Shown here: one piece after another, positions 1-12,017 of the stretch | Layout: each line of letters starts with the position of its first letter | Position numbering within the stretch: position 1 is the first letter of the stretch | Source of the DNA: an uncultured virus (IMG/VR IMGVR_UViG_3300010283_000001) | Lineage: Duplodnaviria > Heunggongvirae > Uroviricota > Caudoviricetes | IMG/VR virus record: IMGVR_UViG_3300010283_000001 | Strand: one strand, 5' to 3' | Length of the DNA stretch: 21,394 bases | The notes under the pieces: generated by a model | What the model was told of the DNA's origin: nothing | Databases searched by the model: none | The model's input: the letters and a program-made list of their open reading frames with translations, nothing else | Program-made: the position numbers and the translations under genes

Positions 1-22
1 CATAGTAAGAGAGATTATCAAG

Positions 23-238
23 ATGGCTAATATCCGCACACTGTTAAAAAATGCAAGTCAAGTTTTATTTTCAGATGACGAGTATTTCAACAAAGACATT
101 ACAGGCGTGAAAAATTTAAAAGACGTGAAGGATGTTATCGGTATCCGTGGATCTTTACGTAAAGGTGACATATACGGTAACAAGGTGCAATATAAACTGT
201 CAAAAGATTATGATTTTACTTTGACAATTATCAACTAA
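23..238 (+). CDS. hypothetical protein, 71 aa
   Basis: ORF track; purine-rich AAGAGAG leader; co-oriented with neighbours. Confidence 0.75.
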   Translation: MANIRTLLKNASQVLFSDDEYFNKDITGVKNLKDVKDVIGIRGSLRKGDIYGNKVQYKLSKDYDFTLTIIN

Positions 239-249
239 GGGATCACAAA

Positions 250-408
250 ATGAAAACTTGCCAATGTGGTAAAAAGTCTATCTCTGGTTTAAAACGTGGC
301 GTTGCTCTTTGTCAATATCACTATAACGCTCAAACGTGGGGTAAGCAGTGGGCGGATCAGGTGGAAGAGGCAAAGAAAGAAAATATAAAAGTAGTTGCAA
401 AGAAATAA
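250..408 (+). CDS. small putative zinc-binding protein, 52 aa (MKTCQCGKK...LCQYH...)
   Basis: Manually translated, below track cut-off; TAAGGG SD upstream; CxC...CxxH motif. Confidence 0.75.
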   Translation: MKTCQCGKKSISGLKRGVALCQYHYNAQTWGKQWADQVEEAKKENIKVVAKK

Positions 409-455
409 AAATAGAGTAAACTGTATTCATCAAGGCGGTGGAATAGCCCACCGCC
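395..455 (+). promoter_or_regulatory. sigma70 promoter plus 5' hairpin (variant)
   Basis: TTGCAA(395-400)-16-TAAACT(417-422); hairpin GGCGGTGG-AATAGC-CCACCGCC 434-455. Confidence 0.7.
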
Positions 456-479
456 TAACAAAGAGAAGAGGAAAACATC

Positions 480-650
480 ATGATCACTTTCGCTACCCGT
501 GAAGCCGCTCGCAACGTTGCACGTAAAGTTAACGCCGCCAACCTGGGCGCTACACTTAAAGCCCCGGTAAAAGATGAATCAGGTAAATGGATCTTTCCTG
601 GTCTGCGTCACGCTGATAAGCTGGGAACATTAACTTTAAAAAATAAATAA
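480..650 (+). CDS. small basic protein, 56 aa (MITFATREAARNVARK...)
   Basis: Manually translated; GAGG SD; codons typical of high expression (CGT, GCT, AAC, CTG); lies between two promoter cassettes. Confidence 0.85.
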   Translation: MITFATREAARNVARKVNAANLGATLKAPVKDESGKWIFPGLRHADKLGTLTLKNK

Positions 651-657
651 TATCCGC

Positions 658-716
658 TTGACAGTAGCATGATTTATAAGTAAAGTAACAACAACGGCGG
701 GAAATGGTTTCCCGCC
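658..716 (+). promoter_or_regulatory. sigma70 promoter plus 5' hairpin (type copy)
   Basis: TTGACA(658-663)-17-TAAAGT(681-686); GGCGGGAAA-TGG-TTTCCCGCC 696-716. Confidence 0.9.
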
Positions 717-736
717 AACAATAAAGAGATAAGATT

Positions 737-1096
737 ATGAAATCAGTAAAAGCAATCAAAACTTACATTGTATCGGCTATTTCTTTTGAAGGTACTACAA
801 CCGAAAAAGAAAAAATCACCGAACTGATGCGCCGTTTTAATTCTGAATACTGGTATCCCGATAATCAAAAACGTTACAATTATAACGTGATCAAGGCGAT
901 AGCCTCATGGTTACAAGGTTTACCGTCAGACATTAACATCGCCTTTGATTATAACGAGATTGATCATTTATTAATTGAATGGAAGTACATAAAAGAAACA
1001 AGCAAAGAAACAACCGTTACCCGTGAGCGGGAAAATTATTGGTTATATATTGCAAGCATGATCGTAATCCTGGCAAAACAGCATAACGTGGCGTAA
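737..1096 (+). CDS. phage hypothetical protein, 119 aa
   Basis: ORF track; directly follows a promoter-hairpin cassette; AAAGAGA leader. Confidence 0.9.
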   Translation: MKSVKAIKTYIVSAISFEGTTTEKEKITELMRRFNSEYWYPDNQKRYNYNVIKAIASWLQGLPSDINIAFDYNEIDHLLIEWKYIKETSKETTVTRERENYWLYIASMIVILAKQHNVA

Positions 1097-1111
1097 TTAA
1101 GAGGAAGAAAC

Positions 1112-1249
1112 ATGAACGCATCACAGCAGATCGAAAAATTCAACCGCAGCAAGGCGCGTAAAGATTGGAACGAAGAGATCACCAAAAAAGGCGACAAGCG
1201 GAACAAAACAAAGAGAGATCGCAGCACAAAAAGATACTGGAACGAATAA
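1112..1249 (+). CDS. T7 gp1.1-like basic peptide, 45 aa
   Basis: Manual translation MNASQQIEKFNRSKARKDWNEEITKKGDKRNKTKRDRSTKRYWNE; GAGG SD; C-terminal half resembles recalled T7 gp1.1 (KGRKLNKTKRDRSHKRSW). Confidence 0.8.
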   Translation: MNASQQIEKFNRSKARKDWNEEITKKGDKRNKTKRDRSTKRYWNE

Positions 1250-1252
1250 CAA

Positions 1253-1277
1253 AAAAGGGCGCAATAAGCGCCCTTTT
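1253..1277 (+). terminator. Rho-independent terminator
   Basis: AAAAGGGCGC-AATAA-GCGCCCTTTT. Confidence 0.85.
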
Positions 1278-1367
1278 AGCTTATATAGAGGCTTGTTACC
1301 CATAGGCAATGGTAACGCCAGGATAAGCCTATAAACCACGTTAGACAGCTTTACAGGAGCTTTAAAA

Positions 1368-1550
1368 ATGAAATTAGACGAAATAAGCAAGGCACTAGCC
1401 CAGGGGCAAAGGTTATGCGCCCGATATCGTGATCAATATGGCTTCATAACTAGCGGCGTGATCCTGGGGATTGAAGGCAATAAGATTTTTATTGACACGT
1501 TGAAAAACGTTGTATATAGTGACAATATAATCTCAATAAAACATATATGA
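1368..1550 (+). CDS. hypothetical protein, 60 aa
   Basis: ORF track; AGGAG SD. Confidence 0.7.
   Translation: MKLDEISKALAQGQRLCARYRDQYGFITSGVILGIEGNKIFIDTLKNVVYSDNIISIKHI
1492..1520 (+). promoter_or_regulatory. sigma70 promoter internal to 1368..1550
   Basis: TTGACA-17-TATAGT. Confidence 0.8.
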
Positions 1551-1558
1551 GGCAAGAA

Positions 1559-1960
1559 ATGAAAAAATTATTGATCGCTGGTTTAATCTCTTTTGGCATG
1601 GTTGGAACATCTAGCGCGGCGATATCCTCCACAGTAGCAGAATTAAGCGCCGTTGATGCAATGGAAAACGTCATGCTTATTAATAATGCGATCCCCGATG
1701 AAATCATGGAGGATTCACACATGATCGCTTATGGTGCTGTTACACAACTAACGGCAAAAATAGATAAATCTATTGTTAATGGCTTAAATGAAGATGTACC
1801 ATGTGAAATTATTACCAGTGTGCTGACTACTCAAAATTTTACGCCGTGGTTAAAAAGTATTCAAAAAGTACACAGTACAGCCGCAGATCGTAGCAATGAA
1901 AAACTAGTGTCAGCACTTGCAACGTATACCCTGGCAAAATGCACCGAGATAAAAGATTGA
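1559..1960 (+). CDS. secreted/periplasmic hypothetical protein, 133 aa
   Basis: Start moved to ATG1559 after GAGG; signal peptide MKKLLIAGLISFGMVGTSSA; two Cys. Confidence 0.8.
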   Translation: MKKLLIAGLISFGMVGTSSAAISSTVAELSAVDAMENVMLINNAIPDEIMEDSHMIAYGAVTQLTAKIDKSIVNGLNEDVPCEIITSVLTTQNFTPWLKSIQKVHSTAADRSNEKLVSALATYTLAKCTEIKD

Positions 1961-1985
1961 CAACATAGAAAGCACGTTATAAGAT
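1957..1985 (+). promoter_or_regulatory. sigma70 promoter
   Basis: TTGACA-17-TAAGAT; no downstream hairpin. Confidence 0.8.
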
Positions 1986-2007
1986 ACACACAACAAAGGA
2001 GAACTAC

Positions 2008-2310
2008 ATGAACGGCATAGCTAAAACGTTTTTTCTTTTTTCTGGTGTAAATGATCCATCAATAAAAGTCGATAGTGTAAAAGAAAACAATACTATCACC
2101 GCTAAATTGTTTCAAGATGAAACAAATAACGTGCTAATCATTAATCTTAAAGAAATAACTAAAGGTTATTATACTATTGCTTACCATGCGATTTATCATG
2201 CTGGTACTAGTGAGGAAGTGCAAACAAGCAACAACGAAAGCGCGGCGCTACCTGGTGATCTGGTGCTGGGCGTTATCAGTTTAATTGTCAATGATTTTTT
2301 TAAGGAGTAA
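2008..2310 (+). CDS. hypothetical protein, 100 aa
   Basis: ORF track; AAGGAG SD. Confidence 0.85.
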   Translation: MNGIAKTFFLFSGVNDPSIKVDSVKENNTITAKLFQDETNNVLIINLKEITKGYYTIAYHAIYHAGTSEEVQTSNNESAALPGDLVLGVISLIVNDFFKE

Positions 2311-2314
2311 AACC

Positions 2315-2410
2315 ATGCCCTATTTACATTTATTTTTCGGTATCTTATTGACAGGATCTTTTTTCTTCTGTATGCTTGTTTCTATTGTAAACCACGTTTT
2401 AAGACATTAA
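2315..2410 (+). CDS. small membrane peptide, 31 aa
   Basis: Manual: MPYLHLFFGILLTGSFFFCMLVSIVNHVLRH; TAAGGAG SD. Confidence 0.7.
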   Translation: MPYLHLFFGILLTGSFFFCMLVSIVNHVLRH

Positions 2411-2419
2411 GGAAACAGC

Positions 2420-2539
2420 ATGAAAATTATTCCCGTACAATATAGCGTAATAAATCCAGCATATGAGGAAGGAAGGAAAACAAGCATGGCTTTATGTTGT
2501 ATTGCTACTATAGCCATGTTGTTATACATTGTGTTTTAA
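2420..2539 (+). CDS. small peptide with hydrophobic C-terminus, 39 aa
   Basis: Manual: MKIIPVQYSVINPAYEEGRKTSMALCCIATIAMLLYIVF; TAAGGA SD. Confidence 0.6.
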   Translation: MKIIPVQYSVINPAYEEGRKTSMALCCIATIAMLLYIVF

Positions 2540-2568
2540 TAGGTTTTATAGTTGTACGCTTTAAAGGC

Positions 2569-2620
2569 TTGACAATTTTTTGTTATGCTTTAAACTATAT
2601 CTTGAAAACGGCAAAGGCCG
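2569..2620 (+). promoter_or_regulatory. sigma70 promoter plus minimal hairpin
   Basis: TTGACA(2569-2574)-16-TAAACT(2591-2596); CGGC-AAAG-GCCG 2609-2620. Confidence 0.75.
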
Positions 2621-2639
2621 CAAACAAAAGGGTAAAATT

Positions 2640-2963
2640 ATGAAATCTGTGATCGGTGTTTATTTGGATAACTCTGATTTTTTCTATCATCGCGCGCGTT
2701 TACTTGATGCTATTGAAATGATAGAATCAGGCTTTAAAGAGTATCGCCTTGCACATGATGACCTGGAAGCATTACAGGGCAATAGTGTTTTTACATTGCA
2801 AGCGAAAGCACTATGCAAAAGCCGGATCGAGATTGCAAGTAAAAAGATAGAACGCGGCATGTCCTGGTTGCGCACCGCAGAAATCAACATGGGGCAATGG
2901 TACGGCGAAAACTTAGAAAATAAACATACTTTTGTCAATGTAGAAAATATTGAAGATTATTGA
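2640..2963 (+). CDS. hypothetical protein, 107 aa
   Basis: Start moved to ATG2640, downstream of the promoter and AAGGG SD. Confidence 0.85.
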   Translation: MKSVIGVYLDNSDFFYHRARLLDAIEMIESGFKEYRLAHDDLEALQGNSVFTLQAKALCKSRIEIASKKIERGMSWLRTAEINMGQWYGENLENKHTFVNVENIEDY

Positions 2964-3025
2964 TTGACAGCACACCTAACAGATAGTATATTGTATCTCA
3001 TAGAGCGGGGAAATGGTTTCCCCGC
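2964..3025 (+). promoter_or_regulatory. sigma70 promoter plus 5' hairpin
   Basis: TTGACA-17-TATATT(2987-2992); GCGGGGAAA-TGG-TTTCCCCGC 3005-3025. Confidence 0.9.
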
Positions 3026-3045
3026 CTTAACAGAAGAGATAAGCT

Positions 3046-3330
3046 ATGAAGATCACAAAAGCACTTTCCAACTATGCAGCACGTCGCGGATTATGTTTAA
3101 CCGTTGAAAATTTAGGGAAAGAAGATTTTTTGTGCTTTTGGGAGCTTGAGAATGATAATGAGTGGATCTTCTCTTATTCTATCTGCGAAGATCAAAACGG
3201 TTGTTTATTAACCTGGCGCGGTAATATCTATTTACCGGAAGAAATCAAAGAAGAATTACCAGGCACGATCATGACTGAGAAACAGCTTAAGGAAGTGATC
3301 AATTTTGTAGGGCAAAACATTAAAAAATAA
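3046..3330 (+). CDS. hypothetical protein, 94 aa
   Basis: ORF track; follows cassette leader. Confidence 0.9.
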   Translation: MKITKALSNYAARRGLCLTVENLGKEDFLCFWELENDNEWIFSYSICEDQNGCLLTWRGNIYLPEEIKEELPGTIMTEKQLKEVINFVGQNIKK

Positions 3331-3331
3331 T

Positions 3332-3392
3332 TTGACACCAGGCAAACAACGTAGTAAAGTTTATCACATAAGGCGGGAAATGGTTTCCCGCT
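3332..3392 (+). promoter_or_regulatory. sigma70 promoter plus 5' hairpin
   Basis: TTGACA-17-TAAAGT(3355-3360); GGCGGGAAA-TGG-TTTCCCGCT 3372-3392. Confidence 0.9.
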
Positions 3393-3413
3393 CACAACAA
3401 AAGAGAACAAATC

Positions 3414-3584
3414 ATGATCCCGACTATGTTTTACGTATCGCGCAAAGGTCACAATATTTTTTGGTCTGAAGATTTAAATGAAGCCATGACGTTTGCCCGT
3501 GATCGTGTTGCTATCGGTGGAGTTAACATTACCGTAACCGATGAAAACGGCATTGAATACTATAACGGCGACGATGAAGAGTAA
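3414..3584 (+). CDS. small acidic protein, 56 aa (MIPTMFYVSRKG...NGDDEE)
   Basis: Manual translation; follows cassette leader AAAGAGA. Confidence 0.85.
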   Translation: MIPTMFYVSRKGHNIFWSEDLNEAMTFARDRVAIGGVNITVTDENGIEYYNGDDEE

Positions 3585-3650
3585 TTAATAAGGCGGGGAA
3601 TACTTCCCGCCACGCAGTGAATTTTCCGTTTGGGAAGTAAAAAATAAATC

Positions 3651-3708
3651 TTGACGATAATTTGTTATCTGATAGAATGTATTCCGTAGGGCGGCAATAG
3701 TGCCGCTC
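3651..3708 (+). promoter_or_regulatory. sigma70 promoter plus 5' hairpin (variant)
   Basis: TTGACG-16-TAGAAT(3673-3678); GCGGCA-ATAG-TGCCGC 3691-3706. Confidence 0.85.
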
Positions 3709-3729
3709 ACAACTAAAAGAGAAATCATC

Positions 3730-3924
3730 ATGGCGCTTAAAAAACTAACAAGCAATACACGTTGGGATGAAATTGACGGGGAAGTATACATTTTCGCCCG
3801 TAAACCAGGTGATCAAAAATGGTCAAAGGCTTTTACTTGCCACCCTGCAACAATAGATCTAATAAAAAGTAAAGGTTTACGTGAAGCAGTAGCGAGAAGT
3901 TTACTGATCCCTTATAAAAAATAG
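3730..3924 (+). CDS. small basic protein, 64 aa
   Basis: Start moved to ATG3730 after AAAGAGA leader. Confidence 0.85.
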   Translation: MALKKLTSNTRWDEIDGEVYIFARKPGDQKWSKAFTCHPATIDLIKSKGLREAVARSLLIPYKK

Positions 3925-3925
3925 T

Positions 3926-3987
3926 TTGACAATATGCTGTTATCTGGTAAAGTGTACTACATAGGGCGGGGCAATAAGGCAACGCCC
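3926..3987 (+). promoter_or_regulatory. sigma70 promoter plus degenerate hairpin
   Basis: TTGACA-16-TAAAGT(3948-3953) with TGn extension; GGGCG...CGCCC 3964-3987. Confidence 0.8.
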
Positions 3988-4005
3988 ATTAATGAGGGTA
4001 GAATC

Positions 4006-4110
4006 ATGTTAGAGAAAATTTTCACGGTTGTAGTAGTTGGCCTGGCGTTATCGGTTGGATTGGTTGCAACTATGGCTAACATGATCCTATCTTCCCACGG
4101 TATTGGATAA
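4006..4110 (+). CDS. small membrane peptide, 34 aa
   Basis: Manual: MLEKIFTVVVVGLALSVGLVATMANMILSSHGIG; GAGG SD. Confidence 0.75.
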   Translation: MLEKIFTVVVVGLALSVGLVATMANMILSSHGIG

Positions 4111-4120
4111 GGTGAATCAA

Positions 4121-4336
4121 ATGATCACGAATAAGACAGGTAAAACAGAATTTTTACGCGGCTTGCAAATTGGTAAACCTGAAATATGGCATTGCACTAA
4201 ATCCGCGCATAATGAAATGAAAGATTTTACTGCTACTTTACAACGTGTTAAAATATCTATCACGCAGAAAAAAGCCTTGTTAGTAGTAGAAAACGAGATA
4301 CCGCAAACCATTATTATTGTCGAGCGTACAGCATGA
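4121..4336 (+). CDS. hypothetical protein, 71 aa
   Basis: Start moved to ATG4121 after TAAGGTG; ATGA overlap with next gene. Confidence 0.8.
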   Translation: MITNKTGKTEFLRGLQIGKPEIWHCTKSAHNEMKDFTATLQRVKISITQKKALLVVENEIPQTIIIVERTA

Positions 4337-4719
4337 AAACTGAAATCATTATTGAAATCATCAACGGTTATAAAGAAGCCTTTATTTTTGCTGAATCAGC
4401 CAGGGATCATGAAGGCTATTTTATTGATAACTTAGACGATTATGATTTTTCAGATCAAGCCCATCAGCGGATCATTCATGACGTAGCGGCTTATTGTGAT
4501 GCCAATGATGCTGCTATCTCTGAGGCAATGAGCGACGGCGCTACAGCAAACCAGATCGGGAATGACTTACATTTCACCCGTAACGGTCACGGCGTAGGCT
4601 TTTGGGATCGCCCTGAAATATACACTACTAACACCGCCAACCGCCTAACAAATGCAGCTAAATTAATGCCATCGGTGCATGCTTACATTGGTGAAGATAA
4701 TTTGATTTATATTGAATAA
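4333..4719 (+). CDS. acidic phage hypothetical protein, 128 aa (FTRNGHGVGFWDR motif)
   Basis: ORF track; translationally coupled; motif recalled from uncharacterised phage proteins. Confidence 0.9.
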   Translation: MKTEIIIEIINGYKEAFIFAESARDHEGYFIDNLDDYDFSDQAHQRIIHDVAAYCDANDAAISEAMSDGATANQIGNDLHFTRNGHGVGFWDRPEIYTTNTANRLTNAAKLMPSVHAYIGEDNLIYIE

Positions 4720-4725
4720 AAAGTA

Positions 4726-4784
4726 TTGACACCGATCCCCAGTATGTTATTATTTACCACGTAGGCGGGAAATGGTTTCCCGCC
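4726..4784 (+). promoter_or_regulatory. sigma70 promoter plus 5' hairpin (type copy)
   Basis: TTGACA-16-TATTAT(4748-4753) with TGn; GGCGGGAAATGGTTTCCCGCC 4764-4784. Confidence 0.9.
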
Positions 4785-4807
4785 AGGTAATCAAAAAGGT
4801 AAATACT

Positions 4808-5197
4808 ATGCGCAACCTGGTTTCTGTTTCTAACGTTGAAAAATTTCAATCCTTACAGGGTATCGTTAACAACGTAGCGCCTTTTTTAGTCAATGGCTTG
4901 ATTGCAAAGATGAAAAATAAACATCATGCGGCATGGTCTGCTTACTGCTTTGATAATGATGAAAAAGCGGCTGAAATGATGTTAGATATGCTGTTAGATA
5001 GTGTAGAAACATCTTTACCGGAAAACATCGCAGAAGAGATCACCTATCGTTATAATATGGCGATCACTTACCAGGAGGTTGCGCAATTTAATATGATGGA
5101 TGATGACGAACAACAGGATCAGGAAATGTTCTGGGAGTATGCAGATCGTCAATCGGCTTTTGATGAAAAGTTAGCGATGTATTATAACGAATATTAA
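4808..5197 (+). CDS. acidic hypothetical protein, 129 aa
   Basis: Start moved to ATG4808 after AAGGT; the track start lies inside the hairpin. Confidence 0.9.
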   Translation: MRNLVSVSNVEKFQSLQGIVNNVAPFLVNGLIAKMKNKHHAAWSAYCFDNDEKAAEMMLDMLLDSVETSLPENIAEEITYRYNMAITYQEVAQFNMMDDDEQQDQEMFWEYADRQSAFDEKLAMYYNEY

Positions 5198-5214
5198 TAC
5201 ACGGTAAAAGAAAG

Positions 5215-5237
5215 GGGCGCACTAAGCGCCCTTTTTT
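5215..5237 (+). terminator. Rho-independent terminator
   Basis: GGGCGC-ACTAA-GCGCCC-TTTTTT. Confidence 0.9.
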
Positions 5238-5423
5238 GTATTCTTTTTTCACGATGGAAGTAACACGTAAAGAATAAACGTAAAAGGTGGCGTAAAACAG
5301 CCTAAAACCGATTATAACCGCTTAAACAAGGTAATAATGACTAATCACCTTGCCAGGATGAAAAAGCTGTTATAAAGCTATTTAGAGCGTTTAAAGCACA
5401 TAGGAAATAATTTGCTTTTTATC

Positions 5424-5452
5424 TTGCCTTTTATCCTGCTTTTGATTATTAT
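5424..5452 (+). promoter_or_regulatory. sigma70 promoter with no directly linked ORF
   Basis: TTGCCT-17-TATTAT followed by a GGGCGG start like the other cassettes. Confidence 0.6.
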
Positions 5453-5583
5453 TATGGAACGGGCGGCACCTGGGGACAGGGGAAGGTAATCACCGGAAGA
5501 TCCCGCTATATATTGATAGCTAATATCTATTAAACAACAAAACATCAAAGGAATAAACTATCAAATCTTTACAATTCTACCTA

Positions 5584-5645
5584 TTGACACAGGATCACCC
5601 TTATAATAAGATGTATCCAGTAGGGCGGGAAATGGTTTCCCGCTT
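5584..5645 (+). promoter_or_regulatory. sigma70 promoter plus 5' hairpin
   Basis: TTGACA-17-TAAGAT(5607-5612); GCGGGAAATGGTTTCCCGC 5625-5643. Confidence 0.9.
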
Positions 5646-5662
5646 GATATAGGAATCATACC

Positions 5663-5896
5663 ATGATCGAACAAATTAAAAGCACTACACCAAATGTTAA
5701 CGGCAATGTTTCACACTTTATCGGTGATAATGAAAGGGGTACACCATACGCCGCCGTAACCGTGCAACCTAATGGCGATTATTGGTTTACCGTGTACGGA
5801 TCATACTCTTTCGGACGCCCGGCACATGATAAGATCTTGCAAGCGGTTAAGCCTACTGGGAAGAATATCACAGCAGAAAAATTTTATAAAAAATAG
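5663..5896 (+). CDS. hypothetical protein, 77 aa
   Basis: ORF track; AGGA SD. Confidence 0.85.
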   Translation: MIEQIKSTTPNVNGNVSHFIGDNERGTPYAAVTVQPNGDYWFTVYGSYSFGRPAHDKILQAVKPTGKNITAEKFYKK

Positions 5897-5897
5897 C

Positions 5898-5939
5898 TTG
5901 CTTTATAGCCGCTGTTAATTTATAGTTATCGTGTAGGGC
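5898..5939 (+). promoter_or_regulatory. sigma70 promoter
   Basis: TTGCTT-17-TATAGT(5921-5926); keeps the GTAGGGC start motif but lacks the hairpin. Confidence 0.8.
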
Positions 5940-5971
5940 AAACAATTTTAAACGGTAAACGAGGAATCACC

Positions 5972-6355
5972 ATGAGCAATATCATCAACCTGGCAGCGAC
6001 TGTAAACGGTAAAGACTTTAACGGCGCTGTAGACCGTGATCCTATGTGGTGCTTATCAGTGTTTAAAGGCGATCTGGTTGAAGTTAGAACAACCGAAGGT
6101 TATAGCGACGATTATAAATGCGAGATTCATTTACACAACTGGTACACGGGTAAAACTTATGCGCTGAATCATGCGTTTATCGGCAAGGTTGAATATAGAG
6201 AAATGATCGACGAGGAAACAGGGCAAGATTTTAGCGATTATGTTTATATTCGTTCAGAAACATTAGCCGAACGTTTGATCGAGAAAATGAAAGCAAAAAA
6301 TAAAATTAATTTAGCTCATTGGATTGATATAACAAACGATTCTGCTTATCAGTAA
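5972..6355 (+). CDS. hypothetical protein, 127 aa
   Basis: ORF track; GAGG SD. Confidence 0.9.
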   Translation: MSNIINLAATVNGKDFNGAVDRDPMWCLSVFKGDLVEVRTTEGYSDDYKCEIHLHNWYTGKTYALNHAFIGKVEYREMIDEETGQDFSDYVYIRSETLAERLIEKMKAKNKINLAHWIDITNDSAYQ

Positions 6356-6370
6356 ATAACATTTCATACC

Positions 6371-6397
6371 AGGGCGCACAAAGCGCCCTTTCTTTTT
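6371..6397 (+). terminator. Rho-independent terminator ending the early block
   Basis: AGGGCGC-ACAAA-GCGCCCT-TTCTTTTT. Confidence 0.9.
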
Positions 6398-6599
6398 ACC
6401 TAAGTAAAGATGATAGCTTTTACCTATCAAAAACGTTCACCGAAAAAAGTGAATAGATCGCGGTATCGAGCTAATCAAGGAGCAGATGAACAACCATACC
6501 ATGAAGATCATAAGGCGCTTACAACGTGTTTTAGACCGCTTATTTTTAATTTCTCAATGTAACTATCTGGCAAAAACAGCCTTTTTCTTGTCTTTCCTC

Positions 6600-6676
6600 T
6601 TAAATGATAATCATTCTTATTTATAGCTGATTATTTATGCAATAAACTGAATAATGCAATAATGATAATCATTCTT
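6600..6676. promoter_or_regulatory. two Fur-box matches
   Basis: TTAAATGATAATCATTCTT 6600-6618 (14/19) and AATAATGATAATCATTCTT 6658-6676 (16/19) versus GATAATGATAATCATTATC. Confidence 0.7.
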
Positions 6677-6970
6677 AACTTATGACCATCTAACCTATAA
6701 AATAATAAGTTATCTAACTAAATTAAAACTAATTATCTCACCTTTATTTATAACTTACTGTTACTATCTCATTGATAACCTTATATTAAACAACAATAAC
6801 CAATATAAATCATTACTAAGCTAAATATAATCTATCTAACCTTTAAAACTATAACTATAATCTATCGAATTGTTGCACAAAGTAACTATTAAATTGTTAG
6901 TAACATTACTAAATAATTAATATCCTATCTATTTATGATCTAATCTTTACCTTCCTATCTATTACCTAAA

Positions 6971-7001
6971 TAATCATTTCATACAGTAATCATTTCATAC
7001 A
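6971..7001 (+). repeat. tandem direct repeat TAATCATTTCATACA x2
   Basis: 6971-6985 and 6987-7001 are identical. Confidence 0.9.
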
Positions 7002-7066
7002 ATAATTATAACAAGAAATATAATTCGCAAGCGTATCATTAGCAGCCTATGCCGGACACATAGGCG

Positions 7067-7212
7067 GCTAATAATAACGCAACTACACACCCCACATAAT
7101 AACCATCACCGATAGTTATTATTTGTGCTTATGTAGCTTGCAACAATTGCAAGCGCAACAATATACATGGTATATTGTATCCCTTACATTGTTGCGGTGC
7201 GTTATTATTAGC
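7067..7212. repeat. 15-bp perfect inverted repeat enclosing several hairpins
   Basis: GCTAATAATAACGCA 7067-7081 / TGCGTTATTATTAGC 7198-7212. Confidence 0.9.
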
Positions 7213-7501
7213 TAATGTTTAGAACATTGGCTATAATATAAGCTGCATATAATAAGCATAGCGAAGAATAATACTGATGATCATAATGCGCCACCCTCCA
7301 GGGGGCGCTATGTGCACACAAAGAAATCTTTCTTGTCAAGAAAAATATTACTACTATTGCGCAAAATTATTTATATCTGAATAGATGATTTTTTATGCTA
7401 TTGGCCCTAATTATACCCCCTTTTGTTGAGCCTACTTTCTTAAAAGCGCAATAAATCAGAATTATCTTGATTTTTAGTCGGTTTTATAGTACAGAAAGTA
7501 T

Positions 7502-7520
7502 GCAAATGATAATCATTATC
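7502..7520. promoter_or_regulatory. Fur-box match
   Basis: GCAAATGATAATCATTATC, 17/19 to consensus. Confidence 0.75.
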
Positions 7521-7597
7521 AGCTATCTTCCACGGTTGGCACTATTTCACGCAGGATCATTTCATTTGGCAAGGTGTATATAGATGTTTAGAAATGC

Positions 7598-7610
7598 CAA
7601 GCCATTGATT
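7598..7610 (-). promoter_or_regulatory. IHF consensus site
   Basis: Minus strand AATCAATGGCTTG = WATCAANNNNTTR. Confidence 0.55.
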
Positions 7611-7690
7611 TACTTAGAATTTATCTGTTTTGTTGTGAGTAATGCCTTTCTTGCTCAGAAAATAATCAAAAGTCTTATAAGTCATTGAAT

Positions 7691-7715
7691 GATAATGCAA
7701 ATGATAATTATTCTC
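7691..7715. promoter_or_regulatory. overlapping Fur-box matches
   Basis: GCAAATGATAATTATTCTC 7697-7715 (15/19) plus GATAATGCAAATGATAATT 7691-7709 (14/19), offset 6 bp. Confidence 0.7.
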
Positions 7716-7803
7716 ATTGATATTTGAGGGGGACGGTCGGCAGAAATCGGGGGGCGCTGAAAATCGCGTTAAGCACCTCTCGCAAGCGAGCAGTATTTTG
7801 CGG

Positions 7804-7816
7804 CAAGTTATTGATA
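7804..7816 (-). promoter_or_regulatory. IHF consensus site
   Basis: Minus strand TATCAATAACTTG. Confidence 0.55.
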
Positions 7817-7935
7817 TTATTGACTTTACGCTTATGAAAAGGGGGTGTGTCGAAATAAATCGGGTATACCGGAAAATTTTTGTGGCATAGATATTTATTT
7901 GTCTATATTATGTACAAAGGGGTGTGTTAAAAATA

Positions 7936-7972
7936 ATAGGTATATATAGAATAATTGATAGGGAAATCCTAT
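7936..7972. promoter_or_regulatory. OxyR-like box
   Basis: ATAG-N7-taga-N7-ATAG-N7-CTAT; three of four tetrads exact. Confidence 0.45.
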
Positions 7973-7990
7973 ACTAATCCCTATACTAAT
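7968..7990 (+). repeat. tandem repeat CCTATACTAAT x2
   Basis: 7968-7978 and 7980-7990. Confidence 0.85.
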
Positions 7991-8023
7991 TCCTCCATTA
8001 ATGATGTTCCTATGTTACTGTTC

Positions 8024-8052
8024 TTGTAATAGATGAAAAGACGCTGTATGAT
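8024..8052 (+). promoter_or_regulatory. sigma70 promoter opening the right-hand gene run
   Basis: TTGTAA-17-TATGAT. Confidence 0.7.
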
Positions 8053-8089
8053 GTGTGGCATGAAACGTAAACTTATAAAGGAGTCTGAT

Positions 8090-8467
8090 ATGTGTGTTCC
8101 TCTTAGCAGTCCACTGCTGTTAGAATTTTATAAAGCATGGATGGAAGATCATTCCTCAATGCATCGTGAGAATGTTGGCTTGTGTATTTGCCTTATGGAT
8201 TATCTGGCAACCACTATGTCAAAGAAAAAACCTACGCAAGAAGATATAGAACATTTCAAGATGGTTCGTAGTAAAACGCTAGAAGAGATGAAATTGCAAT
8301 TCACGTGTGCTGGGCTATCATCATTCCTGCCCTTTAATGATGACCTTCTGTGTTATGAAGATGAAGGTAAGAAACATTCTTGCCATACGAACCCAGAGCG
8401 ATTGCAGTGGGTGAAAGATCGTATTGCCGATTCATGTTTGGTGTTAGGGGGTGATAATGAAAAGTAA
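8090..8467 (+). CDS. hypothetical protein, paralogue family A, 125 aa
   Basis: Start moved to ATG8090 (AAGGAG); GLC...QF..AGL...PFN...CH.N..R..WV motif. Confidence 0.9.
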   Translation: MCVPLSSPLLLEFYKAWMEDHSSMHRENVGLCICLMDYLATTMSKKKPTQEDIEHFKMVRSKTLEEMKLQFTCAGLSSFLPFNDDLLCYEDEGKKHSCHTNPERLQWVKDRIADSCLVLGGDNEK

Positions 8468-8825
8468 TATTCCGTTGAGTAGTGCAGCTTTAATACGATT
8501 CTATAAAGCATGGATTGCCAACCATCCGGCAATGAATCGCACAACGAGTGGCTTGTGTGGTTGTCTGGTAGATTATGTAGATGATTTTGTTGGTCAGGTA
8601 ACTAGAGAAGAAGATAAAAGATGGCGTGATCGTTTGTTGGATAGTTTGAAATACGAAATGAGGAAACAATTTACATGTGCAGGACTGGACTACAATCTTC
8701 CGTTCAATGTAGATTGCATGAATTACCTTTCAGAGTGTATAGACTTGGCGTGTCATACCAACACGTTACGTCTTCAATGGGTGAAAGACAGAATCGAAGA
8801 TGTAAATAATGCTTGCATTGAATAG
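8457..8825 (+). CDS. hypothetical protein, paralogue family A, 122 aa
   Basis: GGGGGTG SD; same motifs as the upstream gene. Confidence 0.9.
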   Translation: MKSNIPLSSAALIRFYKAWIANHPAMNRTTSGLCGCLVDYVDDFVGQVTREEDKRWRDRLLDSLKYEMRKQFTCAGLDYNLPFNVDCMNYLSECIDLACHTNTLRLQWVKDRIEDVNNACIE

Positions 8826-8840
8826 AAATGCCTGTACACT
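8813..8840 (+). promoter_or_regulatory. possible sigma70 promoter
   Basis: TTGCAT-16-TACACT. Confidence 0.5.
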
Positions 8841-8896
8841 GTGTTCCATAAAATATGCAATATCGCGCATAACAAAACTACTAATGAGAGGTGTAA

Positions 8897-9355
8897 ATGA
8901 AAACTGTATCTTTGTATCTTGCTAACACGGAGCGTGTACATAATCTTGTAAAAGAATGCGGTGTGAGTGTTCAATTTAACATAGGAAAGCCTTCCGTGGT
9001 GACAGGCAGTGAGATGTGTGTTATTGATTTCCTCAATGAATATTTTCGTGGAAAACCTATTGCTCGTCACTTCATTCAAGAAATGCGAGATGTACTACAG
9101 GCTTATGAATTCTACCCAGAAATTTGTGAACGCTATGAAACTATTCTTAGTTCTGTAGAAGATCCAGATACCAGTGAAATAGGTGTTTCCCACTTACTGT
9201 GGATGTTGAATGAAATTCAGGATGGGTGTAATGGTATGTCTGAAACCAAACGCCATCGTTGGCTAGGCTATATTCAGGGTGTTATGGTTATGAAAAACCT
9301 TATTACCGTTGATGATGAACGTAATGCTACGCGCCCTGTCTTTAATGGAGCATAA
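8897..9355 (+). CDS. phage hypothetical protein, 152 aa (HLLWM...K.HRWLGYIQG domain)
   Basis: ORF track; GAGG SD. Confidence 0.9.
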   Translation: MKTVSLYLANTERVHNLVKECGVSVQFNIGKPSVVTGSEMCVIDFLNEYFRGKPIARHFIQEMRDVLQAYEFYPEICERYETILSSVEDPDTSEIGVSHLLWMLNEIQDGCNGMSETKRHRWLGYIQGVMVMKNLITVDDERNATRPVFNGA

Positions 9356-9356
9356 C

Positions 9357-9572
9357 ATGAAAAGCATTCAGGTGTGTATTGAAAATAATTGTGGTTATCT
9401 GGGATTGACACATGTTGCTTTCCCTCTTATGTTAGATGCCGATATCGCTTACAGCGGAGTTGCTTATGTGTCATTCAAGACAATGAGCCAAGTACCTGGC
9501 TGGAAGTGGGAAGTAGTTGATGTTGTTGAAGGAGAAGACTATGTTTTCCTTCCACACGAATATACTGTTTAA
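9357..9572 (+). CDS. hypothetical protein, 71 aa
   Basis: Start moved to ATG9357 (GGAG); resembles the C-terminal part of 18695..19294. Confidence 0.8.
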   Translation: MKSIQVCIENNCGYLGLTHVAFPLMLDADIAYSGVAYVSFKTMSQVPGWKWEVVDVVEGEDYVFLPHEYTV

Positions 9573-9586
9573 AAGAGGAAAAGAAG

Positions 9587-9763
9587 ATGGATAAACAAAC
9601 TACTGTGTACTTAGTAACAAAGAATACCCCAGGCTGGAGCCAATGCAGCACTGTACCTTACAAAATCTGTGCAACACTAGAACTAGCACAACGTGCAGAA
9701 GCAGAAGTGAATGCCATGCAATACAGCTATGGTGAAATCATTCCTTTTACTCTTGAACAATAA
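9587..9763 (+). CDS. hypothetical protein, 58 aa (MDKQTTVYLVTK...)
   Basis: Manual translation; GAGG SD; fills the gap exactly. Confidence 0.8.
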   Translation: MDKQTTVYLVTKNTPGWSQCSTVPYKICATLELAQRAEAEVNAMQYSYGEIIPFTLEQ

Positions 9764-9774
9764 GGAGTTGTGTA

Positions 9775-10227
9775 ATGTTTGAAATTGGTAAAGTGTATCG
9801 TTTTAAAAACCCATCTTATATCCGTAAGTTTGCTAACGTGTCCGAGTGCAATAGCAGGATTGCTTCTTTTTTAGGTGATTCCTATTTTCGTGTATTAGAT
9901 GTGGATGATTGGTATGGTGTCACTGCTTTGCAATCCTTAGCAGGAGAACAAGAAATTATCGCTCAAAATGAAGGAGACTTTCTTCAGTGTTACACGTTGC
10001 TTGCAAAAAGTGAGTTTGAGTATTTTGTAGAAGTCTTAGAGGAAGCACCAAAAAGTAAACACGAAGAGAAATACCTGCTTGTAGTGGATGGAGTTCCGAT
10101 CATGGAAACCATCTCCCGTGAGGAAGTTGAAAAAGAGGCGAAACGTTACAAGCTGGATCGTACACAGAGTGTAGTTGAAGTCTATTCTCTTGTTGGTGTT
10201 GCAGATATTAGTGTGAACATCGTATAA
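9775..10227 (+). CDS. hypothetical protein, 150 aa
   Basis: ORF track; TAAGGAG SD. Confidence 0.9.
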   Translation: MFEIGKVYRFKNPSYIRKFANVSECNSRIASFLGDSYFRVLDVDDWYGVTALQSLAGEQEIIAQNEGDFLQCYTLLAKSEFEYFVEVLEEAPKSKHEEKYLLVVDGVPIMETISREEVEKEAKRYKLDRTQSVVEVYSLVGVADISVNIV

Positions 10228-10230
10228 TAT

Positions 10231-10443
10231 ATGTGTAATGACAGATACATTCTTCGTGTATCTGATAAGTCTCCTATGTTTGACTGGCGGGGCTGGTGGC
10301 TACTAGCTCCGATGCAAGGTCTGACAGACGTGGAAAAGGAGGCTTATGTGTATACAAAAGAAGAGATAGAAGATAGTCTTTATTTGACAGATAGCATTAA
10401 GAATGGTATCTTTGAGTGTAAATTGAAAGGAGAGGAAGAATGA
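10231..10443 (+). CDS. hypothetical protein, 70 aa
   Basis: ORF track; tight packing. Confidence 0.75.
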   Translation: MCNDRYILRVSDKSPMFDWRGWWLLAPMQGLTDVEKEAYVYTKEEIEDSLYLTDSIKNGIFECKLKGEEE

Positions 10444-10739
10444 CTATTACAGAAAAACTGCGCTGTATTGCAAAGCAAAGTGGAGAAGGTTTATGGTTTC
10501 CTATTGAGGAAATTATTCAGGACTGTTATGATCAGGCTAAGACTGGCAAATACTCCAAAGCATTTAAACCATCTGTTTTCGGTTTGGATGACTACCCAAA
10601 AAATGAACAAGCAAAGAAACGACAAGTTGATTTGATTGATCTTGCTATGGAAGCACTACGAGAGCATGGGCTTAGTAAGGTGTATGCTTTAAACACCAAA
10701 GAGGGCTTTGTAGATTCAGTGATCGTAGACTGGTATTAA
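10440..10739 (+). CDS. hypothetical protein, paralogue family D, 99 aa
   Basis: ORF track; GAGG SD; ATGA overlap. Confidence 0.85.
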   Translation: MTITEKLRCIAKQSGEGLWFPIEEIIQDCYDQAKTGKYSKAFKPSVFGLDDYPKNEQAKKRQVDLIDLAMEALREHGLSKVYALNTKEGFVDSVIVDWY

Positions 10740-10748
10740 GGAGAAGCC

Positions 10749-11117
10749 ATGCAAGAAAATAATAAAGTGTGTAACATGAAAAGCAGCCCCTATTTGCTAC
10801 AATTTTATGAATGGTGGTTAGAACAAGAAGATACAAACTTTAGCAAAAAGCACTATGGTCTTTGCACGTGTCTTGTAGACTTCTTGTACAATATTGCTTG
10901 GATAAAAGATGTTGAGAGTGTATCAAAGCTCCAATCCTCTGTGCGAGAGGAAATGAAGGAACAGTTTAAGAAAGCGGGTTTGAACCATTTACATCCGTTT
11001 AATACGGATTTCTCGCACTACTTTACGGAAACAGAACTAGGCATTGCACACCTTAATAAAGAACGTGTACAATGGGTGATTGATCGTATTCGTGATATGG
11101 AGGAATACAATGGTTAA
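10749..11117 (+). CDS. hypothetical protein, paralogue family A, 122 aa
   Basis: TAAGGAG SD; family motifs. Confidence 0.9.
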   Translation: MQENNKVCNMKSSPYLLQFYEWWLEQEDTNFSKKHYGLCTCLVDFLYNIAWIKDVESVSKLQSSVREEMKEQFKKAGLNHLHPFNTDFSHYFTETELGIAHLNKERVQWVIDRIRDMEEYNG

Positions 11118-11319
11118 GTTTAAAACTTTCTGTGCAATCACTGTTTGTCTTATTCTTGCATACGTGTTATTCTCTAGTATCATTCGTTTAGGTGAGTATA
11201 TGGCAAGAGAAGCTCGTGAAAGTGAAGCTAAAAAAGAACAGTGCATCGTGTTAAAGCACCAAAGGGATGCTGAAAAATTTCTTGAACAGGATTGTGGGCG
11301 CTATGTGAATTATAATTAG
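11110..11319 (+). CDS. membrane-anchored protein, paralogue family B, 69 aa
   Basis: Start moved to ATG11110 (GGAGG); N-terminal hydrophobic helix. Confidence 0.85.
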   Translation: MVKFKTFCAITVCLILAYVLFSSIIRLGEYMAREARESEAKKEQCIVLKHQRDAEKFLEQDCGRYVNYN

Positions 11320-11328
11320 GAGGGAAGT

Positions 11329-11577
11329 ATGTTAGATATTTTTACCTTTGATCGTGTTGGTACACCGATTACCGAAGAAGAACGTACCAAAATTGAACAA
11401 GAATTGGATGCTTTACGTGCGTCTCTTACAGACACAGCCTCACTACAACGTGAAGCTGCACATCTCACAGAGATCACTGGTATTCAGTGGAGCACGGAGT
11501 GGGTTGTAATTACAATTGAAGCGGATATTTGGGGACATGAAGAGACGCTACGTACCGGAGTAGTAACGGTTTGGTGA
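11329..11577 (+). CDS. hypothetical protein, 82 aa
   Basis: ORF track; AGGAGG SD. Confidence 0.85.
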   Translation: MLDIFTFDRVGTPITEEERTKIEQELDALRASLTDTASLQREAAHLTEITGIQWSTEWVVITIEADIWGHEETLRTGVVTVW

Positions 11578-11623
11578 TAGATGTTATTCTTTTGTGTTTC
11601 TTGATATATAAATAGGAGGGTTT

Positions 11624-11848
11624 ATGGTAAAACGTCTGGAATGGGATGCGTGTACTGCTCACGCTTGCCACTGTGATATTGTTGAAGATCCTAATGGAGA
11701 GATGGTGTATTATGAGGATTACGAAGCATTGCACAATGCTGTGATTGCTTTACTGGATGATATTAGCTCACGCTATCCAGGACAACAATTCACGTGTCCA
11801 CATATCCAACTATTAGCCGAACTTACGGAGTATCCAGGTGTTCCATAA
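11624..11848 (+). CDS. hypothetical protein, paralogue family C, 74 aa
   Basis: AGGAGG SD; CDIV.DP.G..V...DY..L motif. Confidence 0.85.
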   Translation: MVKRLEWDACTAHACHCDIVEDPNGEMVYYEDYEALHNAVIALLDDISSRYPGQQFTCPHIQLLAELTEYPGVP

Positions 11849-11849
11849 T

Positions 11850-12017
11850 ATGGGTGTCCCTGAACAACTGCTCTTTATTGTAGGATTAGTAGGCTTATTG
11901 GCGGCTGGCGCTAAAGCCGCTTCTCACACGCATCACATAATGTTAAGATTTCTGTTCCTACTCCCTTCTATCCTTGTATTATTAGTCATATTGATTGATA
12001 ACATTTTTCACAATTAA
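11850..12017 (+). CDS. small two-helix membrane protein, 55 aa
   Basis: Manual: MGVPEQLLFIVGLVGLLAAG...LRFLFLLPSILVLLVILIDNIFHN; fills the gap. Confidence 0.65.
   Translation: MGVPEQLLFIVGLVGLLAAGAKAASHTHHIMLRFLFLLPSILVLLVILIDNIFHN

Follow-up and report, generated by a model that had tools for sequence, protein, structure and literature searches.

A gene-free gap in a phi92-like phage genome, with a terminal repeat, a strand-specific fold and Fur-box-like palindromes

In phage T5 the terminal repeat is about 10 kb long, and the injection-stop signal (iss) needs A1 and A2. The right end of phage T7 contains the phiOR promoter, AT-rich DNA and an inverted repeat, and Chung, Nardone and Hinkle are said to have described in 1990 a right-end concatemer junction of T7 with a 'hairpin end' intermediate. 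Structured origin signals include ColE1 RNA II, the T4 oriF and oriG transcripts and single-strand initiation (ssi) signals of the G4 type. The abstract and passages of Davison's preprint (10.1101/866236) give paired DnaA boxes as the hallmark of iss and describe its inverted repeats IRC and IRD; the letters 'fur' occur in its text 5 times, always at the start of a word, and Fur is mentioned in none of 12 passages. Closer to the locus described here, a section of a paper in Arch Virol 2025 (PMC12695924) gives direct terminal repeats as the ends of Stephanstirmvirinae genomes, and part of another report (PMC12210895) gives the terminal repeat of phage BME3 as 342 bp by PhageTerm. Here we describe a gene-free gap at positions 6356-8089 of a 21,394-nt stretch of DNA (the whole of which is called the window) from an uncultured virus, IMG/VR record IMGVR_UViG_3300010283_000001. 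This gap probably acts as a control region at the genome ends (the concatemer junction) of a phi92-like myophage. The terminal repeat within it is already known. Three further features are a fold on the minus strand, a G-starved tract of 380 bp and a set of Fur-like palindromes; the literature searched contained no mention of the fold, the tract, the motif at the repeat edges or the Fur-like boxes in the gap.

The gap and the virion ends

The gap is bordered on the left by the stop codon of the gene at 5972-6355 and on the right by an ATG at 8090. The open reading frame (ORF) listing holds no ORF of at least 60 aa between 6355 and 8033/8090. Moreover, the first coding sequence downstream in the curated record of phage Paula begins at the base matching 8090, so the coordinates of an earlier note on this DNA, which had reported a 1.7-kb gene-free region here, are exact. 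When used as a query, the gap matches 76 phage records. Forty-eight of the 76 cover at least 80% of the gap, mostly at 90-96% identity, and nearly all are Justusliebigvirus (phi92-like) coliphages. Whole-gap identity to the 30 best among the matches listed, again nearly all from phi92-like coliphages, is 92.7-95.7%. The window belongs to Justusliebigvirus. Four records named as 'Campylobacter phage' (A150, A145, C3 and A110a) match the full-length gap at 94.7%; this host label looks doubtful. A gene-free gap of 1.5-1.7 kb is also found at the equivalent place in each of phAPEC8, ukendt, phiWec188, ZCKP1 and KP2025. These five, which represent other genera or lineages, were aligned with the gap to give the six-sequence cross-genus alignment used throughout.

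By homology the gap is the junction where the ends of the virion DNA meet, because 7429-7771 aligns end to end and gap-free with both annotated repeats of phi92 and both of UAB_1, that is, with the repeat found at either end of these genomes. In phi92 (NC_023693) the two copies are annotated as DTR-L (1-343) and DTR-R (148270-148612), and the arrangement is the same in UAB_1. The window contains a single copy of this 343-bp direct terminal repeat, to which no strand is assigned, and therefore the assembly runs through the junction. The Paula and phi92 annotations place the repeat between the gp248-side and gp001-side gene blocks: in Paula, the gene left of the gap is homologous to phi92 gp248, with which the phi92 record closes, and the genes to its right are homologues of phi92 gp002 onward. 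Furthermore, the records of phi92, UAB_1, W22, PHB05, VEcB and PD114 all start exactly at the base matching window position 7429, which in phi92 and UAB_1 is the annotated start of the left direct terminal repeat. The suggestion of a terminal-repeat boundary, one of three made in the earlier note, is thus borne out, with the phi92/UAB_1 repeat mapping inside the gap.

Both edges of the repeat read GTTR/AGC in like orientation (the slash marks the edge). On the plus strand, the left edge, GTTG/AGC, is at 7425-7431 (..TTGTTG/AGCCTAC), with the virion left end starting at 7429, and the right edge, GTTA/AGC, is at 7768-7774 (..CGCGTTA/AGCACC), with the virion right end stopping at 7771. GTTR/AGC sites are also paired in other genera, with a spacing of 329 bp in phAPEC8, ukendt and ZCKP1 and of 344 bp in KP2025. 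In Phapecoctavirus, the record Ro121lw begins AGC.. and ends ..GTTG, and is therefore cut exactly at GTTG/AGC. As a unique cut signal GTTRAGC was rejected, since it occurs four times on the plus strand of the window. The BME3 record (PP239276) was likewise rejected as a guide to the ends, and only the published 342 bp is used. This record crosses the repeat region three times and fuses sequence from the right of the repeat to the fold region, which looks like an artefact of assembly or editing.

Fold, G-starved tract and Fur-box-like palindromes

The 168-nt three-way fold at 7045-7212 is a real, strand-specific element of the minus strand only. Scans of sequence collections gave 4 IMG/VR and 11 metagenome loci, three metagenome loci being dropped as chance palindrome matches, and the comparative structure was derived from 20 distinct minus-strand rows, a partial row (L018) being left out of the structure count. 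RNAalifold on this alignment gives -62.55 kcal/mol for a structure in which a closing helix of 14 bp is combined with two arms and with a hairpin at the 3′ end. The closing helix, P1 (7199-7212 with 7067-7080), encloses a three-way junction from which the arms P2 and P3/P3a extend, and the predicted 3′ hairpin, P4, occupies 7045-7065; hairpin loops are 3 nt long. On the predicted fold 98.1% of 1054 cells are paired, and both sides have changed in 15 of the 53 pairs. The paired share, the double-change counts and the covariation score were reached in 0 of 500 shuffles, and the count of further pair types in 148 of 500; as the rows are related, the number of shuffles should not be read as a probability. 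Pairing in the slid controls was 23-53%. The covariation excludes a neutral spacer at this position.

The restriction to one strand is seen in the nature of the pairs. Read on the minus strand they comprise 933 Watson-Crick pairs, 101 G-U pairs and 20 mismatches, and the same pairs on the plus strand comprise 933, 2 and 119, respectively. At some positions of the fold the G-U pairs are invariant in 20/20 sequences. RNA folding gives -81.4 kcal/mol (z -8.1) for the minus strand versus -61.1 kcal/mol (z -6.7) for the plus strand. A covariance model built from the fold finds a single minus-strand copy in phi92 (170 bits), phAPEC8 (193 bits) and KP2025 (149 bits), and plus-strand scores are at most 25 bits. 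The same model found no candidate in rV5 or T5, with a first-look filter that may miss weak matches. Searching window positions 5500-9000 against Rfam returned only a chance match to snoR14 (21.2 bits against a gathering threshold of 40, E 0.86). A -10-like hexamer adjoins P1 in several lineages, Phapecoctavirus among them, and is absent from that place in the Justusliebigvirus group. We lean, by a little, towards the fold being made as a leftward transcript rather than exposed as single-stranded DNA, to which we give a clearly smaller though appreciable chance.

To the left of the fold is an AT-rich, G-starved tract at 6620-7000 (no strand assigned; A 40%, T 38%, C 17%, G 5%) with short ATCTATCTAACC-type repeats. 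G makes up 5.0% of these positions, and the tract contains five of the ten G-free runs of at least 30 nt in the window. Over 6501-7000 the GC content is 0.242, the lowest in the window, and the GC skew is -0.438. Across genera the plus strand remains G-poor here while sequence and length drift. The earlier note had pointed to strand bias, hairpins and repeats in the gap. The composition agrees with the first of these, and direct and inverted repeats are indeed abundant.

Palindromes resembling Fur boxes were scored against the 19-bp consensus of the E. coli Fur box. Four copies, none assigned to a strand, make up repeat family D1. Box 1 (6600-6618) has one mismatch to AATGATAATNATTNTC and five to the 19-mer consensus, box 2 (6658-6676) matches the consensus at 16/19 positions, box 3 (7502-7520) is the best match at 17/19, and box 4, given with its flanks (7694-7718), matches at 15/19. 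Boxes 3 and 4 lie inside the terminal repeat. Allowing up to three mismatches on both strands, the Fur consensus matches only at 6658 and 7502 (3 matches versus 0.02 expected; 0/100 shuffles). A pattern for the palindrome family finds four sites, all of them in the gap, versus 0.05 expected (0/100 shuffles). When the gap alone was shuffled by dinucleotides, the Fur-like count was reached in 0/300.

Fur-like boxes recur in the gaps of other lineages and are kept in four. In the cross-genus alignment the core of box 1, AATGATAAyCATT, is kept in 6/6 sequences, and box 2 is less Fur-like in Phapecoctavirus. Box positions were surveyed in 21 loci, which are not independent of one another. Both edge motifs are present in 17 of the 21; of these 17, 15 have a box that begins 73-81 nt ahead of the right edge, and 16 have one that precedes the repeat by 606-815 nt. 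The distance from box 4 to the right edge is nearly fixed even though the repeat itself ranges from 329 to 412 bp. A 41-nt region around box 3 matches E. coli DNA that, in the 2 records inspected of 1620, precedes a gene for an FTR1-family iron permease by 67 bp. Boxes 3 and 4 are overlapped by weak promoter matches (8-9/12) whose hexamers belong to the boxes themselves. Phage-encoded Fur (PF01475) was found in 0/3 genomes (phi92, phAPEC8 and T5); the same search matched in 14/14 control genomes, in 12 of them above the cut-off. On Fur boxes in phage genomes or in the gap region the literature searched held nothing relevant, and a receptor-screen preprint makes no mention of fur or iron.

The earlier note had also spoken of motifs for host factors. 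This fared unevenly: the Fur-like sites are confined to the gap, the IHF-consensus matches (six in the window, two of these in the gap) are too few to argue from, and DnaA boxes (TTWTNCACA or TTATNCANA) number 0 in the gap. Fur is the only host protein for which a dependence is plausible. A further array of Fur-like sites occurs in a relative, G001, where a second gene-free region of approximately 1.5 kb (C1:6143-6210; L029 1036-2565), located some 10 kb upstream of the gap in that genome, holds a dense cluster of five or six boxes. At least 80% of this second region is covered by 53 phage records, and identity among the 25 matches listed is 97-99%, above that of the gap. It contains no tRNA and no Rfam match.

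Other features of the gap and its flanks

In the cross-genus alignment the conserved islands are the terminator, 6411-6480, Fur-like box 1, 7035-7215 (strongly), both repeat edges and the box-4 module, and between them lies the tract that keeps its G-poor composition and not its sequence. The terminator, identified by a hairpin scan, is an intrinsic-terminator-like hairpin with a T-run at 6371-6389 on the plus strand. It closes the right-end early gene block, and its stem and T-run are identical in 6/6 sequences, in keeping with the earlier remark that the gap follows a terminator. A GGGCGC..GCGCCC stem is common to the terminator hairpins at 5209-5237, 6371-6389 and 1253-1277 (the last on the minus strand). 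Plus-strand promoter matches of at least 10/12 number 11 in the 6.4 kb of the left block and 9 in the 11.9 kb of the right block, which lends moderate support to the description of two differently organised blocks on either side of the gap. Within window positions 1-6355, ten of the 11 promoter matches have a perfect TTGACA, the one at 3651 reads TTGACG, and all precede small genes of the right-end block. Right of the repeat, a promoter scan found TTAAAA-17-AATAAT (9/12) at 7927-7955 on the plus strand, which we infer to be a candidate promoter of the left-end gene block; its -10 is GATAAT in Phapecoctavirus.

The island at 6411-6480 is a conserved non-coding block (TGATAGC..CCTAT..TGAATAaATCGCGGTATCGAGCTAATCAA) with no strand assigned. 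An ORF covering it (6410-6562) gains stops or frameshifts in Phapecoctavirus and the Klebsiella relatives, as does the ORF at 7717-7890. A candidate ORF of 46 aa lies at 6486-6626 on the plus strand, with the Shine-Dalgarno (SD) sequence AAGGAG 5 nt before its ATG. It is intact in 6/6 Justusliebigvirus loci compared (5 phages, phi92 being counted twice), lacks a start or an SD in Phapecoctavirus and the Klebsiella relatives, and is not annotated in the phi92 and Paula records. Its final codons pass through Fur-like box 1. A protein-coding reading of the gap was rejected, as its ORFs are not kept across genera. A tRNA scan of the gap region found none.

Among the repeats, a 25-nt G-run/A-rich sequence (family D3) occurs three times on the plus strand, at 7726-7750, 7839-7863 and 7916-7940, and so straddles the right repeat edge. 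The copy at 7916-7940 is conserved across genera, and no further copy is found elsewhere in the window. The repeat search also gave a tandem 12-mer, CCTATACTAAT(C/T) (family D14), at 7968-7991 on the plus strand. Between the fold and the terminal repeat lies a variable spacer (7213-7428, no strand assigned) that is poorly conserved between genera; a local hairpin within it at 7283-7303 is not kept in other genera.

Contigs of sequencing runs were taken from Logan, and of 24 runs the RNA libraries X15, X17 and X20 and the DNA library X2 were compared with the window. These contigs cannot show termini, strand or transcription, and DNA may be present in the RNA libraries; no conclusion is drawn from them. 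In X20 a 202-nt contig at 7537-7736 with a depth of 65 abuts a contig at 7422-7540 with a depth of 3.7, several Logan contigs break at 7422, and 6671-7004 is covered by no contig of the three RNA libraries. A weak plus-strand sequence resembling a promoter, TGCAAA-17-TATCTT, has box 3 within its spacer and would give a start near 7537, although this is a hint only.

Candidate explanations and known systems

We favour a genome-end control region as the explanation of the gap. By homology, the virion genome has its right end, unique and non-coding, in 6356-7428, and 7772-8089 is the leader of the left-end gene block. The packaging nuclease would cut at the two like-oriented GTTR/AGC sites 343 bp apart. 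The fold, 216 nt from the repeat, together with the G-starved tract may be a cis-acting single-strand signal, which would serve to start replication or to copy or process the end. The four putative Fur boxes may bind host Fur, in which case promoter use or DNA architecture at the ends would depend on the iron status of the host. Several observations weigh against this explanation. The ends are placed by homology to annotated records, and Logan contigs cannot show read starts; the ends of the BME3 record are irregularly joined. GTTRAGC also occurs at 5846 and 13231, so that the 7-mer alone cannot define the cut and its context must add specificity. DNA parameters fold both strands nearly equally (-47.1 for the minus strand versus -42.6 for the plus strand), the Justusliebigvirus group has no sigma-70-like minus-strand promoter at a conserved position, and the fold is not followed by a terminator. 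Lastly, no box clearly overlaps a strong promoter.

A replication origin, in which the tract, at 22% GC, would be the unwinding element and the terminal repeat would merely adjoin it, is a tentative alternative that overlaps with a genome-end control region and does not exclude it. The fold would then be either a primer-transcript structure of the ColE1 RNA II or T4 ori type, or an ssi signal of the lagging-strand template as in G4 and plasmids. That the tract has the lowest GC of the window and keeps its scarcity of G across genera while its sequence drifts would fit such an origin, as would a strand-specific fold, present in one copy per genome, directly beside it. However, the gap has neither DnaA boxes nor a conserved promoter, and the literature searched yielded no mapped origin or replication data for the phi92-like group. 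The strand preference of the fold can also be read as the mark of a regulatory non-coding RNA gene near the end, acting in trans or sponging a protein, with the Fur-like boxes providing an iron response. The G-U bias (101 on the minus strand versus 2 on the plus), the G-U pairs invariant in every row and an RNA folding energy that favours the minus strand by 20 kcal/mol all speak for an RNA. We nevertheless consider such a gene unlikely, as the fold has no conserved promoter or terminator, belongs to no Rfam family, carries hairpin loops of only 3 nt and keeps its position relative to the repeat in all lineages.

The palindromes raise two further explanations, both of which we consider improbable. 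In the first, DNA entry would be staged as in T5: the right end with its strong-promoter early block would enter first, and a host protein bound at the Fur-like arrays of the gap and of another non-coding region some 11 kb upstream would halt or pace it. The T5 iss, annotated at NC_005859 9140-10149, itself contains Fur-like palindromes, with three consensus windows of up to four mismatches versus 0.02 expected (0/300 shuffles). The best local match between the gap and T5 positions 1-12000 is 24/25 bases, between box 4 and T5 9680-9656, inside iss. The second Fur-like cluster of G001, in its conserved non-coding region, and the position of the strong-promoter block between the two non-coding regions would also suit staged entry. 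Against it, the pairs of DnaA boxes that passages of 10.1101/866236 call the iss hallmark are absent from the gap, homologues of A1 and A2 were found in 0/3 records (phi92, phAPEC8 and G001) at E ≤1 in a search with no positive control, and the repeat is 343 bp rather than 10 kb. In the second explanation the gap apart from the repeat would be spacer DNA, and the palindromes would be chance products of AT-rich DNA or sites for a phage protein, such as the small terminase, instead of Fur. Box 4 does lie at a fixed distance from the cut site, as a terminase recognition site would, and the boxes are AT-rich palindromes within AT-rich DNA. However, dinucleotide shuffling of the gap never gave as many, the best box agrees with the host consensus at 17/19, the same 25-mer occurs in the unrelated T5, and the covariation of the fold speaks against a neutral spacer. 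A more far-reaching proposal, which we put forward as a long shot, is that host Fur is a structural and regulatory partner of the phage ends and is also the injection-stop factor of T5. On this proposal Fur, bound to arrays inside the terminal repeat and on either border of the early block near the end, would act with the fold to gate DNA entry or first-round replication by the iron status of the host.

Phages of the phi92 type are common candidates for therapy. At their ends nothing but the repeat has been annotated, and the origin, the packaging signals and the early control of these phages remain to be mapped. The fold, with its covariation and strand specificity, and the candidate sites for an iron regulator at fixed positions around the cut sites are concrete elements for mutation, and could reveal how these 147-kb genomes replicate, are cut and become active. 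The Fur-like 25-mer common to the gap and to the injection-stop DNA of T5 offers a host-protein candidate for a pause that has gone unexplained for decades. If this is true, phage infection would be linked to iron status, which is strongly variable in the gut and in infected tissue.

The closest known counterparts are the terminal repeats of phi92, UAB_1 and BME3, which share with the window homologous sequence, the 343-bp length and the same flanking genes. The records of phi92 and its relatives, however, annotate the repeat only, and leave out the fold, the G-starved tract, the edge motif and the Fur-like boxes. In comparison with E. coli Fur operators, the gap boxes agree with the palindromic consensus at 17, 16 and 15 of 19 positions, and the box-3 region resembles DNA upstream of an iron permease. 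They differ in lying in the terminal repeat and non-coding end of a virulent phage, not clearly over a promoter. With the T5 iss the gap shares a large, non-coding, repeat-rich region at a terminal-repeat boundary beside early genes, as well as Fur-like palindromes. The analogy with T5 drawn in the earlier note is strengthened by those palindromes and by the 24/25-base match to box 4, and weakened by the lack of DnaA boxes in the gap, by phi92-like genomes without an A1/A2 match (no positive control) and by a repeat of 343 bp against about 10 kb. The T7 right end has the same order of an easily melted tract, inverted repeats and a short terminal repeat. However, it has no sequence relation to the gap, and selection on the gap fold acts on a single strand, something that an intermediate with a duplex hairpin would not need; to our knowledge, phi92-like phages do not carry a single-subunit phage RNA polymerase. 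Finally, ColE1 RNA II, T4 oriF and oriG and the G4-type ssi signals resemble the gap in having a strand-specific element of several hairpins beside a tract prone to unwinding, whereas the gap fold has neither an Rfam family nor a conserved promoter.

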